Positions 3,464 through 64,000 of a stretch of DNA of 64,000 nt are shown piece by piece. The first letter of the stretch is position 1. Each line of letters starts with the position of its first letter. Under the pieces are notes generated by a model. It did not search any database and was not told where the DNA came from. It saw only the letters and a list, made by a program, of their open reading frames with translations. Origin of the DNA: an uncultured Rhodospirillaceae bacterium (lineage in GTDB: Bacteria > Pseudomonadota > Alphaproteobacteria > Rhodospirillales > Defluviicoccaceae). Position numbers and translations under genes: made by a program. The stretch covers positions 2,030 to 66,029 of the forward strand of contig CAYVUM010000002.1 in the NCBI GenBank assembly GCA_964454795.1, read 5' to 3'.

Positions 3464-4813
3464 TTAGTCCTCATCGCGGCCGATTAACCCCCGGGCGTGG
3501 CGCACCCCGAACCAGACCAGCCCGACGACCACCGGGATCGCCAGACCGGTCACCAGATCGACGTCGAGGGCGACCCCGCCGGCCTTGATCGCCTTGGCCG
3601 CGTAGGCGATGAGGCCGAGCACGTAATAGCTGATCGCCGCTGCCGAGAGGCCCTCGACGGTCGCCTGCAGGCGCAGCTGCAGCTGCGCCCGCCGGTTGAT
3701 CGCCTCGAGGAGTTGCTGGTTCTGGGCTTCCAGCGCCACGTCGACCCGGGTGCGGAGCAGCGTGCTCGCCCGGGCGACCCGGTGGGCAAGACCGTCGATC
3801 CGGGCTGCCGTCGCTTCGCAGGTGCGGATCGCCGGCCAGAGCCGCCGGTCCAGAAAGATGCTGAGTCGCTCATAGCCCCCGGCCCGCTCCTCCCGAAGTT
3901 CGCTCAGCCGCGAGCGGACGATCGCCGCGTAGGCCTCGGAGGCGCTGAACCGGTAGCTCGTCGCAGCAGCGATCCGCTCCACTTCGCCGGCGAGTGCGGT
4001 GATCGCGTCGAGCAGCGCCCGCTCGTCGACCACATCCTCGAGCCGACCGAGCCGCTCGGAAAGATCGCCAAGCGCCTTCTCCACCTGGCCGAGCCTGGGC
4101 GCCATCGCCTGGGCCAGCGGCAGGCCGAGCACCGCCATCTGGGTGTAGGTGTTGATCTCCAGCAGCCGCTGGATCGACCGGCCGGCCCGACGGTCAGAAA
4201 TGCCGCGGTCGCGAAGCAGAAAGCGGGTAAAGCCGTCGTCATCGGGGCGGAGATCAGTGAAGTATTCAGCCGAGCCGCCGGCGATGACGCTGCCCAGCAC
4301 GGTATGGTGGTTGAACAGCCGCGACAGCGCCTCCGGGTCCCGCTCCGGCGCATTGGCGGCATCGAAGGCAAGATGGGCAGCAACCAGCACTTCCCCGGGA
4401 ATGGCATCACGCCACTCGCGGGGGACGAGGTTGATCACCGGATCGGCGAACGGATCGGCGAACGGCCCCGGACGGATAAAGGTGTAGGTGCAGAACTCGG
4501 TGTGACGTTCCCAGCGCAGCTTGAACGGCCCGAAGTCCTGGATGAAGTGCTTGGCACCCTCCGCAGGCGGCGCGACGTCGTAGCGGCCGCAGAGGTGCTT
4601 GAAATGCTCCCGCTCCCGCTCCGGAACGGTGGCGCCGGCGGGCTCACCGGTGATGAGCGCCAGGTAGGACAGCCGCAGCGGCGCCGTCGCCGGATCGTAA
4701 GGCCGGGAGTGGACCTCGTTGACCACCGCCGCGCGCAGCGGATGCGCCGGTCCGAACAGGGCCGATGCAGGCGACCGGTTGGAAAGCGAAGGCGGCTGGT
4801 CGGCTGGGATCAC
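3464..4813 (-). CDS. DUF3422 family membrane-anchored protein
   Basis: 449-aa ORF with HSRP...LRWERHTEF...LLEINTYTQMAVLGLPLA...RFSASEAYAAIV and two C-terminal TM helices, which is the typical DUF3422 layout. Confidence 0.8.
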   Translation of the reverse strand: MIPADQPPSLSNRSPASALFGPAHPLRAAVVNEVHSRPYDPATAPLRLSYLALITGEPAGATVPEREREHFKHLCGRYDVAPPAEGAKHFIQDFGPFKLRWERHTEFCTYTFIRPGPFADPFADPVINLVPREWRDAIPGEVLVAAHLAFDAANAPERDPEALSRLFNHHTVLGSVIAGGSAEYFTDLRPDDDGFTRFLLRDRGISDRRAGRSIQRLLEINTYTQMAVLGLPLAQAMAPRLGQVEKALGDLSERLGRLEDVVDERALLDAITALAGEVERIAAATSYRFSASEAYAAIVRSRLSELREERAGGYERLSIFLDRRLWPAIRTCEATAARIDGLAHRVARASTLLRTRVDVALEAQNQQLLEAINRRAQLQLRLQATVEGLSAAAISYYVLGLIAYAAKAIKAGGVALDVDLVTGLAIPVVVGLVWFGVRHARGLIGRDED

Positions 4814-10498: not shown

Positions 10499-10576
10499 TG
10501 GGGCGAGAGATGGGATTCGAACCCACGACCCCCTGGACCACAACCAGGTGCTCTAACCGACTGAGCTACTCCCGCC
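10499..10576 (-). tRNA. tRNA-His (anticodon GTG) with encoded G-1 and CCA
   Basis: The reverse complement folds by hand: G(-1)-GCGGGAG-TA-GCTC-AGTCGGTTA-GAGC-A-CCTGG-TTGTGGT-CCAGG-GGGTC-GTGGG-TTCGAAT-CCCAT-CTCTCGC-C-CCA. The extra 5' G opposite C73 is the tRNA-His hallmark. Confidence 0.9.
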
Positions 10577-57881: not shown

Positions 57882-60656
57882 TCATGACAGGATGGCGTGG
57901 ACCTTCTCGAGCAGCGCCTCGCGCCGGTACGGTTTCTGGAGGAACGGATAACCGCTGTCGGAGAGCCGGGCTGCTGTCTCCGAGGACGGATAGCCGGATG
58001 TGAACAATACCCGGGCCCCGGGCCGGGACTTCAGCACCTCGCGGGCCAGCGCGTTTCCGTCCACCCCTTCGCGCAGAACGATATCGGTGAACAGCAGGTC
58101 GAGCTCGGGCATGGTCTCCAGGCAGCGGCGCGCCTCTTCGGCGCTGGCCGCCTCGCGAACCACGTAGCCGTTGCGCTGAAGCACCCGCACAGCCGTCCGG
58201 CGCACCCGCTCGTCGTCCTCGACCACAAGGATGACGGCGTGATCCGCATCCACGGTGGGTATCGCCGGCGATTTCGGGTCCTCTGCGCTCTCGCCCTCCG
58301 CCTCCGTCTGCGGCAGATAGATCAGCATCGAGGTGCCGGCATCGGGGGCGCTGTCGACGACGATATGGCCGCCCGACTGGGTAACGAAGCCGTAGACCAT
58401 GCTGAGGCCGAGACCGCTGCCTTTGCCGAAGCCCTTGGTGGTGAAGAACGGCTCGAAGATCCGTTCGACCACGTCCGGGCTCATGCCGCAGCCGGTGTCG
58501 GTGACGGCGATCCGAACGTACTGTCCTGGCGGCGGCCCCGTCTGGTCCGGGTCGGGGGCCGCATCGACGATGACGTTGTGGGTGGCCAGGGTGACCACGC
58601 CGCCGTCAGGCATCGCGTCGCGGGCGTTGACCACGAGGTTGACGATAGCGCTTTCCAGCTGACCGCGATCGATCATCGTCATCCACAGACCTTCGGCCAG
58701 GATCTCGCGGATGGCGATCCGGTCGCCCAGGGTCCGGCGGAGCAGGTCGGTCATTTCCCCGATCACCACGTTGACATTGGTGTTCTTGGGATTGAGCCGT
58801 TGGCGACGGGCGAAAGCGAGGAGGCGGTTGGTCAGCTCGCTGCCCCGCTCCACCGACCAGATGGCATCGGCGATCAGCTCGTGGCGCTCATCGCCGGGGT
58901 CGAGCTCTTCGTCGAGGAGCTGCAGGTTGCCCAGAATGATGGCGAGCAGATTGTTGAAATCGTGGGCAATGCCGCCGGTCAGCTCGCCCACGGCCTTCAT
59001 CTTTTGAGCCGTCCGCAGCCGCTCCTCGTTGGCCTTGCGCTCGGTGATGTCCTCCTTGACCGCCACGTAGTGGGTGACCTTGCCGCGAACGTCGCGAACC
59101 GGGGCGATCGATGCCAGCTCCCAGAACAGCTCGCCGCTCTTTTTCTTGTTGTAGAGTTCCCCGCTCCAGACCCCGCCGGCAGCGATCGTCCGCCACAACG
59201 CCTGATAGGTCTCAGGCGGCGTCAGCCCGGACTTGAGAATGCTGGGGTTTTTACCGACAACTTCTGCATATGTGTAGCCAGTCGCTTCCGTAAACTTCGG
59301 GTTCACATATTCGATCCGACCGGTGACGTCGGTGATCACCACCGACACCGGGCTCTGCTCAATGGCCTGGAACAGCTTGCGCAGGTCGCCCTCGGCCCGG
59401 CGGTGCGCGGAGATGTCGCGGATGAACAGAAGAAACTGATCCTCGCCGTCCCAGCGCATGGGAATGGCCTGCATCTCGGCGTAGGCAACGCCGCCGCCGG
59501 GCTTGAGGATCTCGATCTCGGCCACATCGCCAGCGACGATTGGAAAGCCAAAGGGCTCGCCGATCAGCTGCTCGGAGGACGTTCCAAATAACGCTTCCGC
59601 CGCCTGGTTGACGAAACGGATCCGGTCTTCGGCATCGACCACCATGGTCGCTTCGGCCTGCAGGGCGATGATCGAACGCCACCGGGCCTCGCTGTCCCGA
59701 ACCGACTGTTCGGCCTTCTTCTGCTCGGTGACATCATCGTAGAGGGTGACGACCTCGCCGCCCGGCAGCCGGAAGACGTAGGTATCCCGCCACCCGCAGA
59801 CCCGGTCGTTTTGATAGTAGCGGACCGGCAGACGCTCCGGTTCGCCGGTGCGCGCAACCCGGCGCATCACCTTCGGCAGTCCGTAATCCTCGAGTCCCGG
59901 GTAGACCCGGCTCAAGTAGGCGCCGACCACCTCGTCGGCGCTCACCGCGTCGATCCGCTCGGCAGCGCGGTTGAACGCGCGGATGACGAAGTCGCCGCTG
60001 GCATCATCCAGATCGACGATCATCGCGCCGCTGCGCATGGTGTCAAACAGCTCGCGAAACCGTGACTCGCCGGCATGAAGCCGGTCCATCAGCGGCGCGC
60101 CGAGGGTCTGGAACGTGAACACGCCAAGGGCGATCAGCAGACCGGCAATCACCACCGTGTAAATGCCCGACCGCACGAACGGCGTGCGCAGGTGCCAGAG
60201 GTCGACGGCGGCGATGACAATCAGACCACCGGACCCGGCCGGCGCATAGGCGCCGAGCACCGTTTTGCCCGTGGCATCGCGGCCGATCCTCGTGCCCGTC
60301 TCCCCCGCGAAAGCCGGCTCGAGCCAGCCGGGATCGCCCGCCGGTCCGGGGCCGAGCCCACCCTCGCGGCCGCGGCTCAGCACCACCTCCCGCCTCTGAC
60401 CGTCGGCGGTGACCAGGGCGGCCCAGCCCCTGTCTGCCACACCGGGAAGAAGCTCCAACGCCAGCGTTTCGGCGCCGCCGCCCTCGATCACGGCCGCGGC
60501 ACGATCGACCGTCTCCCTGAGGGTGGTACGTTCCCGGTTGAGGGCCGTTCCGTAAAACAGGGCCATGGCCACGCCGCCCACGGCGACAGCAACGACGGCG
60601 ACGATCAGCGAAAGCAGGTAGAGGGGCCGGTTGTCGCCGATTGCTTTCGTCCTCAG
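57882..60656 (-). CDS. hybrid sensor histidine kinase/response regulator (2 TM plus periplasmic loop, 3 PAS, HisKA, HATPase_c, REC)
   Basis: H-box GGIAHDFNNLLAIILGN, N/G boxes (NLVVNARDAMP, DTGCGM, GSGLGLSMVYG) and a C-terminal receiver (ILVVEDDERV...LLFTDIVL...TSGY). The track ORF starts at GTG 60581, in the middle of the first TM helix. I extended it to the in-frame CTG at 60656 (see finding). Confidence 0.88.
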   Translation of the reverse strand: MRTKAIGDNRPLYLLSLIVAVVAVAVGGVAMALFYGTALNRERTTLRETVDRAAAVIEGGGAETLALELLPGVADRGWAALVTADGQRREVVLSRGREGGLGPGPAGDPGWLEPAFAGETGTRIGRDATGKTVLGAYAPAGSGGLIVIAAVDLWHLRTPFVRSGIYTVVIAGLLIALGVFTFQTLGAPLMDRLHAGESRFRELFDTMRSGAMIVDLDDASGDFVIRAFNRAAERIDAVSADEVVGAYLSRVYPGLEDYGLPKVMRRVARTGEPERLPVRYYQNDRVCGWRDTYVFRLPGGEVVTLYDDVTEQKKAEQSVRDSEARWRSIIALQAEATMVVDAEDRIRFVNQAAEALFGTSSEQLIGEPFGFPIVAGDVAEIEILKPGGGVAYAEMQAIPMRWDGEDQFLLFIRDISAHRRAEGDLRKLFQAIEQSPVSVVITDVTGRIEYVNPKFTEATGYTYAEVVGKNPSILKSGLTPPETYQALWRTIAAGGVWSGELYNKKKSGELFWELASIAPVRDVRGKVTHYVAVKEDITERKANEERLRTAQKMKAVGELTGGIAHDFNNLLAIILGNLQLLDEELDPGDERHELIADAIWSVERGSELTNRLLAFARRQRLNPKNTNVNVVIGEMTDLLRRTLGDRIAIREILAEGLWMTMIDRGQLESAIVNLVVNARDAMPDGGVVTLATHNVIVDAAPDPDQTGPPPGQYVRIAVTDTGCGMSPDVVERIFEPFFTTKGFGKGSGLGLSMVYGFVTQSGGHIVVDSAPDAGTSMLIYLPQTEAEGESAEDPKSPAIPTVDADHAVILVVEDDERVRRTAVRVLQRNGYVVREAASAEEARRCLETMPELDLLFTDIVLREGVDGNALAREVLKSRPGARVLFTSGYPSSETAARLSDSGYPFLQKPYRREALLEKVHAILS

Positions 60657-61066
60657 TCCGCCGTGTCCTGACCGCCCTGGAGGGCCGGGGTCGCGACGGC
60701 GTGGGCGAGCGTCTCCCGCAGCCGGCTGACGGTGACCGGTTTGCTGAGCGTCCGCACCGATTTCAGGCCCTTGTATTCAGCCAGGAGCCGGGCGTTAACC
60801 GCATATTGCGGGGAAAACCCGGTAATAATGATGATCGCGGCATCGCACTTCTGCTGCACCAGCCAGAGGACCAGCTCATTTCCATCGATCTCCGGCATGA
60901 CCATGTCGATCACCACCACATCGGGCTTGCGCCGGCCATAGGCCTCGATGAAATCGCGGCCATGGCAGGTGATTTCCACCTCGAAGCCCATCGGCCTCGC
61001 GACTTTTCCGACGAAGGCCGCAAACTTCGGCTCGTCGTCGACAATCAGCAGGCGTTTTTCCGGCAT
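60653..61066 (-). CDS. single-domain response regulator (CheY-like receiver)
   Basis: MPEKRLLIVDDEP...PDVVVIDMVMPEIDG...AAIIIITG...LSKP. All canonical receiver residues (DD, D, T, K) are present. Confidence 0.88.
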   Translation of the reverse strand: MPEKRLLIVDDEPKFAAFVGKVARPMGFEVEITCHGRDFIEAYGRRKPDVVVIDMVMPEIDGNELVLWLVQQKCDAAIIIITGFSPQYAVNARLLAEYKGLKSVRTLSKPVTVSRLRETLAHAVATPALQGGQDTAD

Positions 61067-61436
61067 CGACCTCTCTCGCAATCGCGGGAGTTCCGGTTTT
61101 GATCGTCATCCCCGGTCCAGTCCAGGGGGCAAACTCGCCACAATCGGCCAGGTTACCCCCTCAATCATGGCGCGGAGGCGCCCTCGGCGCTAAAAGACCC
61201 CGACAGACTTACGCCGACGGCGCGATTGCACCAGCGCCGGGCCGTCGCGCACAATGACAGGCTCCTGCAACCTGACGATATCATAACCGAACAGGGGTCG
61301 CACGCGGCGACCCGCGCGCCGCTCAGGACCCTGGATTGCTGTCAGGATACGGCCGGCGGCCGTCCAATCCGTCCGGATGGAGGTCCGCTGTCGCGATCCA
61401 CCAACCCTCAACCGGCACGGACCCCCTGGTCATGCA

Positions 61437-62363
61437 ATGAACCGCTGCCGCATCATTCTGCTGGACCTGTCGCCGGGCCGGCCGCTGCTCGCGGCGATGT
61501 CCGACACGCTGTCGGGCCCGGGCCGGATGCAGCCCCGGTCGCTCATCGCGGCCCGGGCGATCAGCGATTTGCTGGCCCGACTGGAGGACGGCGTGGAAAC
61601 CGCTGTGGTTCTGGCCGCCCGGGAGGCCACGGCCGATTTCTGGCAGGCGCTGGCGCTGATCACCGAGCACGCCCCGGCAACGGCGGTCGTCGCCGTCCTG
61701 GCGGCGGCCGATCCCGATAACCGCGTGCTGGTCTCGCGGTGTCTGCAGGCTGGAGCCGATGACATGCTCACCGAAACCGAACTGGCGACACCGCTGGCTC
61801 ACCGGACCCTGCAACGGGCGATCGAACGCCGCCGCCACGACCGCGATCCCCGACGCGGGCGCAGCGCGCCGGCCGCTGAAGGCGGTGTTAAGGACTGGGC
61901 GTGGTCGCGCCGCCTCTATGGCAGCGGGCCGCTTGCGGTGAGCGAGCGAAGCCTCGGCACGTCCGATCTTTCGACCGTGGATCCGGTTACCTATGCCGAG
62001 ATCGTCGAGGAATACGGCCGTCTTCTCGACCGGTCGCTGGAACAGCAGGTCCACTGGAACCAGCACATGCTGAGCGAAGACGTCAGTGCGTTTGCCGACC
62101 GCCTCGGACTGCTCAGCGCCGGTCCCCGGGATGTCATCGAAATCCACAAGGCGGCGATCAACCCCCGGCTCGAAGAAAAATCAACGACAAAGATAAGGGC
62201 TTATGTCGATGAAGGACGATTGCTGATGTTAGAGGTCATGGGCTATTTAGTATCCTTCTACCGGCGCCTGACATGGGGAGGTCGGAACAGTTTCGAACGC
62301 CGGCACAGTCTGGAAAATGAGCCTGGCCAGCCGCCATTCGCCAAGGATGAAAACGATGAGTAA
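61437..62363 (+). CDS. pseudo-receiver domain protein with C-terminal KaiA/RsbU-like helical domain (KaiA-position gene)
   Basis: The N-terminus has a receiver-like beta/alpha pattern ([10 protein letters not shown]...AVVLAAREA...[10 protein letters not shown]...[12 protein letters not shown]). It lacks the phospho-acceptor Asp (VVLAAR) and the conserved Lys (TE instead of KP). The C-terminal segment [48 protein letters not shown] aligns, from memory, with S. elongatus KaiA ...KVVEIHMELMDEFAKKLRVEGRSEDILLDYRLTLIDVIAHLCEMYRRS and with the RsbU N-domain ...EIISIHRKVL...FLIEVMIGYGMAY. Its stop overlaps the kaiB start by 8 nt. Confidence 0.7.
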
Positions 62364-62631
62364 GTTCTCACTCAAGCTCTATATCGCCGGTCGAACGGTG
62401 AGAACCGAACAGGCGATTGCGAATCTCCGGAAAATTTGTGAGACTGATTTAGCTGGCAAATACACGCTGGTCGTGATCGATGTTCTGGAACGGCCGCAAT
62501 TGGCCGAGAACGAGAAAATTCTCGCCACGCCGACGCTTGTCAAGGATCTGCCACCCCCGCTGCGCCGCATCGTCGGCGATCTTTCCGATCGGGAACAGGT
62601 CCTGGTCGGCCTCGATCTGGCCGAGATCTGA
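62356..62631 (+). CDS. kaiB: circadian clock protein KaiB
   Basis: [29 protein letters not shown]...[53 protein letters not shown] is near-diagnostic of KaiB (compare ...[49 protein letters not shown]). An AAGGA SD lies 8 nt upstream. Confidence 0.93.
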
Positions 62632-62670
62632 GCCCGTCCTCCGGTCCAAATCTGCGGAAATTGAACGTCG

Positions 62671-64000
62671 ATGAATAAGAATCTGGTTGAAAAAATCCCA
62701 ACGGGGATTCCCGGTCTCGACTTCATTGCTGATGGCGGCCTTCCCAAGGCTCGCACCGTCCTGGTCGCCGGATCGGCGGGCAGCGGCAAGACGGTGTTCG
62801 CGGCTCAGTACCTGGTCGAAGGGATTCGCCGCAACAACGAGGCGGGCGTTTTCGTGACCTTCGAGGAGCACCCCCGCGATATTCGCCGAAATGTCCTGCC
62901 GTTCGAATGGGACATACCCGGGTGGGAGAAGACCGGCCTCTGGACGTTCGTGGACGCCGCCCCCGAGCCTTCCCAGGATGTCACCATCGTCGGCGCCTAC
63001 GATTTCGGCGCGCTGCTCGCCCGCATCGAGCATGCGATCCGCTCGACCGGCGCGACCCGGATCGTCCTCGATTCGATCGGTGCCGTTTTCGGTCAGTTCT
63101 CGGACCACCGCCGTGTCCGCCATGAGCTGTTCCGGATCGTCTCCGCCATGCGGGAGATGGGGGTCACGGCCGTGCTCACCGCCGAACGGGTCGAGGAATA
63201 CGGCGGCATCGCCCGGCACTCGGTCGAGGAATTCGTCTCAGACGGAGTGATCATCCTCCGCAACGTTCTGGAGGAAGAGAAACGGCGGCGGACGATCGAA
63301 ATCCTTAAGTTCCGCGGCACCACCCACCACAAAGGCGAGTACCCGTTCACGATCATCCCGAACGAGGGGATCATCGTCATCCCGCTCTCCGCGATCGAGC
63401 TCCGCCAGCGCTCCGGGGATGTGCGGGTGACCTCCGGCAGTGCCGCGCTCGATGCGATGTGCGGCGGCGGCCTGTTCAAGGATTCGGTGATCCTGGTCTC
63501 CGGCGCCACCGGCACCGGCAAGACCCTGCTTGTGACCCATTTTGTCGCCGGAGGGGTCGCCGCCGGCGAACGCTGCCTGCTGTTCGCCTACGAGGAGAGC
63601 CGCGAACAGCTCGGCCGCAACGCCATCGGCTGGGGAACAGACTTCGACACCCTCGAACAGGAAGGCAAGCTGCGGGTGGTCTGCGAATACCCGGAGTCGG
63701 CCAGCATCGAGGACCACCTGATCCGCATCAAGGAACAGATCGAAGAGTTTCGCCCCGACCGCATCGCCATGGACAGCCTGTCGGCCCTGGAGCGGATCTC
63801 GACCCTGCGCGGCTTCCGGGAGTTCGTCCTTGGGGTCACCTCATTCTTTAAACACCAGGAAATCACCGGGCTGTTCACCTCCACCACCCCCACCCTGACC
63901 GGCGGAACGTCGGTCACCGAAACCCACATCTCCTCGATCACCGATATGATCGTTCTGCTCCGCTATGTGGAGCTGTTCGGCGAGATGCGCCGCGGCCTGA
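62671..64000 (+). CDS. kaiC: circadian clock protein KaiC (first ~443 aa; continues past window end)
   Basis: Hand translation from ATG 62671 stays open to the window end. CI: GIPGLDFIADGGLP, Walker A GSAGSGKT, FVTFEE, ERVEEYGGIARHSVEEFVSDGVIILRN, ILKFRGTTHHKGEYPF. CII: Walker A GATGTGKT, FAYEES, ETHISSITDMIVLLRYVE. It is absent from the ORF track because there is no stop in the window. Confidence 0.95.
   Translation, partial: MNKNLVEKIPTGIPGLDFIADGGLPKARTVLVAGSAGSGKTVFAAQYLVEGIRRNNEAGVFVTFEEHPRDIRRNVLPFEWDIPGWEKTGLWTFVDAAPEPSQDVTIVGAYDFGALLARIEHAIRSTGATRIVLDSIGAVFGQFSDHRRVRHELFRIVSAMREMGVTAVLTAERVEEYGGIARHSVEEFVSDGVIILRNVLEEEKRRRTIEILKFRGTTHHKGEYPFTIIPNEGIIVIPLSAIELRQRSGDVRVTSGSAALDAMCGGGLFKDSVILVSGATGTGKTLLVTHFVAGGVAAGERCLLFAYEESREQLGRNAIGWGTDFDTLEQEGKLRVVCEYPESASIEDHLIRIKEQIEEFRPDRIAMDSLSALERISTLRGFREFVLGVTSFFKHQEITGLFTSTTPTLTGGTSVTETHISSITDMIVLLRYVELFGEMRRGL

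Follow-up and report, generated by a model that had tools for sequence, protein, structure and literature searches.

Near the end of a 64,000-nucleotide (nt) stretch of contig CAYVUM010000002.1 from an uncultured Rhodospirillales-like alphaproteobacterium (hereafter the window), an open reading frame (ORF) lies directly upstream of kaiB and kaiC. Sequence comparison and structural modeling identify its predicted product as a genuine KaiA relative, of the KaiA3 type. The observations as a whole are best explained if this ORF is a KaiA3 family member that acts with KaiB and KaiC in a KaiA3-like cycle, and we consider this explanation probable. The locus is another example of a kind already reported in proteobacteria, and not a first.

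KaiA3 was described in Synechocystis sp. PCC 6803 as Sll0485, a protein composed of a receiver and a KaiA-like C-terminal domain and encoded upstream of kaiB3 (Köbler et al. 2024, PMC11372060). It branches as a separate clade basal to KaiA, and orthologues with kaiA3B3C3 synteny were reported in Rhodospirillum and Bradyrhizobium (PMC11372060). The orthologue in R. rubrum, Rru_A3293, is encoded upstream of kaiB/kaiC (PMC10931921). An earlier examination of the window from its letters alone (the sequence-only reading) was right to name KaiA3 as a precedent; it overstated the novelty of the locus, since proteobacterial KaiA3 orthologues and KaiA3 proteins devoid of the phospho-acceptor Asp were already published (PMC11372060, PMC10931921). 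We found no mention of non-cyanobacterial KaiA homologues in the text of Dvornyk & Mei 2021 (PMC8113500).

A KaiA3-type gene upstream of kaiB and kaiC

The kaiA3-like gene spans positions 61437..62363 of the forward strand and its translation yields 308 amino acids (aa) plus a stop codon. An alternative in-frame ATG at 61377 would produce a 328-aa protein; the 308-aa form is identical to the NCBI-sourced protein (P0001), and its start agrees with the N-terminus of a homologue (P0003). The TAA of this gene (62361-62363) and the ATG of kaiB (62356-62358) are both contained in the 8-nt sequence ATGAGTAA (62356..62363, forward strand), where a direct reading confirms the stop/start overlap proposed earlier. 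A close relative (locus L081) has the same overlap, its upstream gene ending at 4168 and the next gene starting at 4161. From this arrangement, we predict that the kaiA3-like ORF is translationally coupled to, or co-translated with, kaiB.

The two following genes have the same orientation and complete the cluster at the window end. The kaiB gene (62356..62631, forward strand) encodes 91 aa that match the Pfam KaiB model (E=1e-28), the NCBIfam model PRK09301 (116.5 bits for a cut-off of 110) and KaiB chains in the PDB (about 100-104 bits). After a spacing of 39 nt, kaiC (62671..64000, forward strand) runs past the end of the window, which holds its first 443 codons. Its product matches the NCBIfam KaiC model with E=1e-189, exceeding both curated cut-offs, and is 100% identical over 443 aa to a full-length protein of 504 aa (P0275) encoded on the same 68,133-nt NCBI contig. 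As the sequence-only reading had stated, the predicted identities of kaiB and kaiC are unambiguous.

The kaiA3-like protein divides into a pseudo-receiver domain (residues 1-136, 61437..61844, forward strand), defined from its AlphaFold2 fold and Foldseek matches, a linker (residues 137-182, 61845..61982, forward strand) with low predicted local distance difference test (pLDDT) values but family-wide conservation of its distal part, and a C-terminal domain of the KaiA four-helix type (C-domain; residues 183-280, 61983..62276, forward strand), supported by the model, Foldseek, hhalign and a family hidden Markov model (HMM). This is the KaiA-like architecture that had been recognized from the sequence, with one correction: the linker, first estimated at about 100 aa, measures ~45 aa, as helices 1 and 2 of the four-helix domain (residues 183-206 and 212-225 in the AlphaFold2 model) lie within the segment initially assigned to it.

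The Pfam KaiA, RsbU_N and Response_reg models gave no significant match to the kaiA3-like protein, which for KaiA and RsbU_N is an outcome that the sequence-only reading had listed as counting against its proposal, and the silence of these standard profiles meant that the link to KaiA had to be sought with deeper tests, based on family profiles and structure. The protein lies below the curated thresholds of Pfam PF07688 and of NCBIfam KaiA, and is not filed as a canonical KaiA.

Structural comparison points to KaiA. An AlphaFold2 model of the domain alone, obtained from a 57-sequence alignment, contains four helices with a pLDDT of 87. When this monomer model was compared to the PDB using Foldseek, KaiA chains occupied the top 7 ranks and 11 of the top 14, all aligned on their C-domain. 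These matches (5jwr, 1q6a, 1v2z, 5n8y, 1r5q, 1r8j, 5c5e and 4g86) have TM-scores of 0.5-0.73, root-mean-square deviations of ~3.7-4.3 Å over ~100 columns and probabilities of 0.9-1.0. With the full-length model, the top four PDB matches are full-length KaiA structures (1r8j chains A and B, 4g86 and 5c5e) at E ~1e-5.

Profile comparisons lead to the same relation. An HMM built from 153 family sequences scored up to 24.3 bits against 120 genuine KaiA proteins, versus 8.5 bits for the best of 600 shuffled KaiA and 9.5 bits for the best of 120 reversed sequences. Using hhalign, the family and KaiA align colinearly over 87-89 columns (P=0.0016 and 0.0048). The Pfam KaiA model reaches E<0.01 in 3 of the 132 family members scanned. 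The window C-domain itself obtained a weak 6.2 bits with a KaiA HMM of our own construction, for a maximum of 3.9 bits in 1,000 shuffles and 3.0 bits with the reversed sequence; family-level and structural evidence for the KaiA link is much stronger than this single-sequence score. Structure, profile-sequence and profile-profile comparisons are independent of one another and, each modest alone, together characterize the predicted C-domain as KaiA-like.

Two motifs locate this resemblance along the sequence. In the kaiA3-like protein, VIEIH occupies residues 233-237 and EGR...YRR residues 259-277, the R...YRR part covering 261-277. The equivalents in Synechococcus elongatus KaiA, whose residue numbers agree with Table 1 of PMC4844972, are VVEIH at 233-237 and RLTLIDVIAHLCEMYRR at 262-278, so that both proteins carry the motif R-L-x-L-x-[DE]-V-x-x-x-L-x-x-x-Y-R-R. 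The nearly identical spacing of these C-terminal motifs had been noticed from the sequence alone; the gap between them, from His to Arg, is 24-25 residues instead of the ~35 given at the time.

In the N-terminal part, residues 5-136 adopt a five-strand alpha/beta receiver fold in the full-length AlphaFold2 model (pLDDT 68), with values mostly between 64 and 87 in this block and a low-confidence stretch at residues 27-34. A Foldseek search with this model returns receiver domains for the N-terminal part. At the sequence level, the Pfam Response_reg model does not match the kaiA3-like protein even at E up to 10, and phmmer against PDB sequences produces a marginal receiver match only. Alignment with CheY and 151 receiver-type family members shows that the equivalent of D57 is Ala and that the T87 and K109 equivalents are lost too, in agreement with the earlier observation that the acceptor Asp and the conserved Lys had disappeared. 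The acceptor Asp is kept in 104 of the 152 receiver-type family members and lost in 48 (about one third), its loss extending to the two nearest relatives (P0002, P0003) and to some further members from Rhodospirillales. Among published proteins, the KaiA3 of Microcystis and Pleurocapsa have no phospho-acceptor Asp, the acceptor of Sll0485 being D65 (PMC11372060). Judging from the alignment, the receiver of the kaiA3-like protein cannot be phosphorylated. It would thus be a pseudo-receiver, in parallel to canonical KaiA and not unique within KaiA3. With the acceptor Asp missing, any input through the receiver domain must come by binding and not by phosphotransfer.

Model confidence is lowest in the linker (pLDDT <50 at residues 137-172). 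Residues ~165-180 are conserved nonetheless, with a family consensus V-T/S-A-x-x-F/L-G-x-x-P-L. We may speculate that this conserved distal linker matches the strand of the KaiA linker that docks on KaiB.

The family and its association with kaiB and kaiC

In an exhaustive search of 1.84 billion representative proteins, a profile of the conserved C-terminal ~125 aa recovered a family of at least 1,712 clusters (defined at 50% identity) with E up to 0.001; the number is 1,399 when the limit is set at 1e-10. A word-indexed search returned five relatives only besides the protein itself, three of which carry a canonical receiver. The KaiA-type domain is C-terminal in all 154 retrieved sequences, followed by a tail of 18 aa (median), and is joined to various N-termini: among 132 members scanned with Pfam, 84 have Response_reg, 44 PAS and 9 GAF domains. 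Other fusions occur in single loci, namely receiver-PAS-PAS, MASE3-PAS, MASE3, MEDS-PAS-PAS, MEDS-GAF and PAS-PAS. In the sensor-fusion loci (L024, L027, L037, L048, L050, L052, L053, L058 and L073), kaiB and kaiC are found directly downstream where the contig is long enough. A full-text literature search combining KaiA-like, KaiB and PAS domain found no description of such fusions. The KaiA3-type C-domain is captured by no Pfam or NCBIfam model, and annotation pipelines therefore probably describe these genes as hypothetical proteins or response regulators.

Synteny was analyzed in 80 loci obtained from a scan in which each GTDB species was represented by a single genome. They are distributed over Microcystis, Rhodospirillales and Defluviicoccus, Acuticoccus, Chloroflexota, Planctomycetota, Desulfobacterota, Nitrospinota, Verrucomicrobiota, Latescibacterota, Spirochaetota, Chromatiaceae, Accumulibacter, Magnetococcales, Chlorobiales/Bacteroidota, Actinomycetota and Obscuribacterales. 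The family extends across >10 phyla, far beyond the five genera outside cyanobacteria that Köbler et al. 2024 covered. The window KaiB and KaiC were compared to these loci using tblastn. We found kaiB immediately downstream in 71 of the 77 loci with enough room for it, including two with overlapping genes (L040 and L081), and kaiC next in 61 of 74, with Microcystis contributing 12 of the 13 exceptions. Homologues devoid of kaiBC, which if common would have counted against the sequence-only reading by its own account, are thus clearly not common.

The six loci with no adjacent kaiB all belong to Planctomycetota (L031, L038, L054, L059, L065 and L066), and have an adjacent kaiC after ~200-330 nt. 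KaiB was not detected in these six loci by tblastn at E up to 1e-5, which leaves either a very divergent KaiB or a KaiA3-KaiC pair devoid of KaiB.

The Microcystis loci connect this family to published work. Microcystis proteins are 41% identical to the window C-domain (E ~1e-29) and, in the reverse search, the Microcystis protein matches this ORF alone in the window (E=1.8e-30). Their loci have an adjacent kaiB, a non-adjacent kaiC and a Ser at the D57 position. These are traits of the published Microcystis KaiA3, for which kaiC3 sits elsewhere in the genome (PMC11372060), and hence the family of the window ORF can be equated with the KaiA3 family. Based on these comparisons, we consider that the family includes Microcystis KaiA3.

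Partner KaiC and the proposed cycle

The 504-aa KaiC (P0275) is devoid of a Rhodobacter-type C-terminal extension. Against PDB sequences, it scores 565-587 bits with S. elongatus and T. elongatus KaiC, versus 323 bits with the 568-aa Rhodobacter KaiC. Its best PDB match is the reconstructed ancestral KaiC-beta of Mukaiyama et al. 2025 (8ZN5, 703 bits), extant cyanobacterial KaiC not exceeding 587 bits. By these scores, the window KaiC resembles the KaiA-dependent cyanobacterial KaiC, and far less the KaiA-independent Rhodobacter KaiC. The phospho-site motif is HISSITD and the nearest named relatives come from Rhodospirillales bacteria.

The tail of this protein, SEIERLDQLF, resembles SELSRIVRGV, which we take to be the segment of S. 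elongatus KaiC bound by KaiA. In 53 KaiCs partnered with a KaiA3-like protein, the tail carries a conserved motif, E-x-[DE]-R-[LIVM]-x-x-[LM]-F. We dropped this motif as evidence for a KaiA-binding site, given that similar tails are present in paralogues with no KaiA3-like neighbor. Several genomes (L016, L023, L071 and others) have a second kaiB-kaiC pair a few kb away from the kaiA3-like cluster. The KaiCs of these additional pairs share 50-56% identity with the window KaiC and have similar tail motifs, but no KaiA3-like gene of their own.

In the Synechocystis system, KaiC3 is bound by KaiA3, which stimulates its autophosphorylation; KaiB3 favors dephosphorylation and is required for a large ternary complex, and the trio oscillates in vitro (PMC11372060). 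Following this model, the window protein would most likely serve as a KaiA3-type activator of KaiC autophosphorylation, with KaiB as antagonist. The kaiA3-like protein would dimerize via its C-domain, bind the 504-aa KaiC at its C-terminal tail (A-loop segment) and stimulate KaiC autophosphorylation. Once KaiC is phosphorylated, KaiB would bind, recruit and sequester the kaiA3-like protein, after which KaiC would dephosphorylate. The outcome would be a three-protein phosphorylation cycle, modeled here on Synechocystis KaiA3/KaiB3/KaiC3 and on canonical KaiABC. What we establish directly is the order of the genes, their homology, the fold, the synteny and the kind of KaiC that the partner resembles; all the binding and kinetic steps we infer.

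Comparison with known systems places the locus closest to KaiA3 (Sll0485 and orthologues), with which it has in common a receiver-fold N-terminus, an unconserved linker and a KaiA-like C-domain in a protein of ~300 aa, and a gene directly upstream of kaiB, then kaiC. The 41% C-domain identity is to Microcystis KaiA3, Sll0485 and Rru_A3293 being likened by description only, and the acceptor Asp is lost as in the Microcystis and Pleurocapsa proteins. Unlike in Sll0485, the phosphorylatable Asp (D65) is replaced by Ala, although this is not an absolute criterion. Other differences are the Rhodospirillales-like alphaproteobacterial host, a more degenerate receiver (T87 and K109 equivalents gone, no Pfam Response_reg match) and a divergent pair of response regulator and PAS hybrid kinase that is conserved in the window clade. 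Canonical KaiA (S. elongatus PCC 7942; 1R8J, 5C5E; PF07688) likewise combines an Asp-less pseudo-receiver with a C-terminal four-helix domain, is located upstream of kaiBC, presents the EIH (233-237) and R...YRR (261/262-277/278) motifs at nearly identical positions and is the best structural match in the PDB; however, it is only 16-19% identical to the window protein in structural alignments, and its KaiC-contact helix is not conserved. The KaiA-independent KaiBC hourglass of Rhodobacter sphaeroides (8DBA, 8FWI) is also a proteobacterial kaiB-kaiC pair, but its KaiC is 568 aa long, with a C-terminal extension that substitutes for KaiA (PMC11372060), whereas the window KaiC has 504 aa and no extension, and the window cluster has a KaiA-type gene upstream.

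Several points weigh against a KaiA3-like protein acting in such a cycle. Pfam KaiA, RsbU_N and NCBIfam remain silent on this protein even at E up to 10, and sequence profiles built from 6 or 57 sequences detect KaiA among PDB chains at E ~0.5 at best, the top matches of the phmmer and sequence-profile PDB searches being spurious (SHERP, glucokinase). Foldseek gives the domain model E-values of no more than 0.04-0.8 in significance, which is what a domain both small and helical should yield, and the hhalign probability is only 7-16%. The KaiA helix holding the KaiC-contact residues (239-259) is not conserved in sequence, which fits the inability of S. elongatus KaiA to replace KaiA3 on KaiC3 (PMC11372060). 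The KaiC tail is consistent with the model and not diagnostic. The function of every proteobacterial member would be assigned by analogy, and R. rubrum KaiC was arrhythmic in the described sets, which contained S. elongatus KaiA and not the KaiA3 orthologue of R. rubrum (Mukaiyama et al. 2025, PMC12081879).

We may also hypothesize that the same contacts serve a driven timer, in which engagement of the pseudo-receiver by an environmental or two-component signal gates KaiC activation, resulting in an hourglass reset daily and not in a self-sustained, temperature-compensated oscillation. We view this as a serious possibility that falls somewhat short of an even chance. The sensors found at family N-termini (receiver, PAS, GAF, MASE3, MEDS) suggest signal gating, a conserved kinase and response regulator pair lies next door, the closest PDB entry of the window KaiC is the ancestral KaiC-beta, and R. 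rubrum KaiC, a member of proteobacterial group III, was arrhythmic in the tested sets. Those sets, however, used the heterologous S. elongatus KaiA, inactive on KaiC3-type proteins, whereas the group III KaiC of Cyanothece and Synechocystis oscillate in vitro with KaiA3 (PMC12081879). A receiver that cannot be phosphorylated, as predicted for the window protein, also argues against a gated timer.

An output or adaptor function appears unlikely. In such a scheme, the protein would dock on KaiB-KaiC, for example via its receiver-like domain in the manner of the CikA pseudo-receiver, and relay the state of the clock with no stimulation of KaiC. A receiver-fold domain and neighboring two-component genes would suit signaling, and the lack of sequence conservation in the KaiC-contact helix of KaiA is compatible with this role. 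Yet the KaiA-type C-domain is the most conserved part of these proteins and is kept while N-termini are swapped, the characterized family member stimulates KaiC3 phosphorylation, and the kaiA3-like protein has no enzymatic or DNA-binding output domain.

That the C-domain is a partner-switching module of the RsbU_N kind, or some generic bundle of helices, superficially similar to KaiA and next to kaiBC by coincidence, is highly improbable: although the Pfam RsbU_N and KaiA models overlap on some KaiA proteins (P0175), RsbU_N reaches E=0.14 in one of six members and helical bundles do yield weak Foldseek E-values, this reading is largely refuted by synteny (kaiB adjoins in 71 of 77 loci, across >10 phyla), KaiA holds the top 7 Foldseek ranks with no RsbU N-domain among the top 50, genuine KaiA score ~15 bits above shuffled and reversed controls, and no PP2C or RsbT-like partner occurs among the nearby genes examined. 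The resemblance to RsbU_N mentioned in the sequence-only reading found no support, and an RsbU N-terminal domain (PF08673) was rejected, with no profile match and no PP2C domain in the kaiA3-like protein.

A bolder extension of the KaiA3-like cycle would make the cluster a three-protein oscillator, self-sustained and temperature-compensated, in a host outside cyanobacteria, and the KaiA-type C-domain an ancient, widespread effector module, fused to sensors and placed upstream of kaiBC in >10 phyla. We put this forward tentatively and find it rather doubtful in full. If such an ancient module is real, KaiA-dependent clocks or timers would be neither invented by cyanobacteria nor restricted to them. 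The usual description of KaiBC systems in proteobacteria is that of hourglass timers with no KaiA. The window locus would represent another class, with a KaiA3-type activator and a cyanobacterial-like KaiC devoid of the Rhodobacter-type extension, and is a further candidate for asking whether three-component Kai oscillators exist outside cyanobacteria. R. rubrum, a cultured and more tractable organism, has already prompted this question, so that the window locus adds little alone. The family survey is probably more useful than the locus, with its ~1,700 clusters, many sensor fusions and near-obligate kaiBC linkage.

Neighboring genes and sequence context

A 355-nt intergenic region (61082..61436, unstranded) separates the kai cluster from a divergent unit and, from the gene arrangement, presumably contains the promoters of both. 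A scan of 60900-62800 for sigma-70 promoter and terminator consensus sequences found nothing above shuffle expectation. The divergent unit starts with a single-domain response regulator (60653..61081, reverse strand; Pfam Response_reg E=3.5e-17), whose true start is likely the ATG at 61066. An operon-like arrangement associates it with a hybrid histidine kinase (57882..60581, reverse strand) of Pfam domain organization PAS-PAS-HisKA-HATPase_c-receiver. This pair, in which the response regulator has a canonical receiver, is divergent from the kai cluster at the same position in six loci: that of the closest relative (L081) and those of five Rhodospirillales or Defluviicoccus genomes (L008, L014, L018, L023 and L032). 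Across the six loci, the response regulator is 69-84% identical and the kinase 55-80%. The response regulator is better conserved than the KaiA3-like protein itself. The response regulator and PAS hybrid kinase may be input or output partners of the kai cluster.

The surrounding genes encode PCMT, a DPBB/SPOR lytic-transglycosylase-type protein, a D-Ala-D-Ala carboxypeptidase (PBP5 type), thymidylate kinase, MetG, TatD, GlmS and PheT. A mobile-element context was rejected, as these neighbors are housekeeping genes.

The G+C content of the window is 67%. G+C content at third codon positions (GC3) falls to 0.65-0.68 at 61902-62631, a region covering the KaiA-type C-domain and kaiB, while neighbor genes mostly range from 0.78 to 0.87, and the receiver part and kaiC from 0.83 to 0.84. 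The same dip is seen in L081, with 0.48 in kaiB and 0.75 in kaiC. It could reflect expression tuning or the history of the module. Finally, a tRNA-His (GTG) at 10499-10575 on the reverse strand is the single Rfam or ARAGORN match in the 64-kb window.

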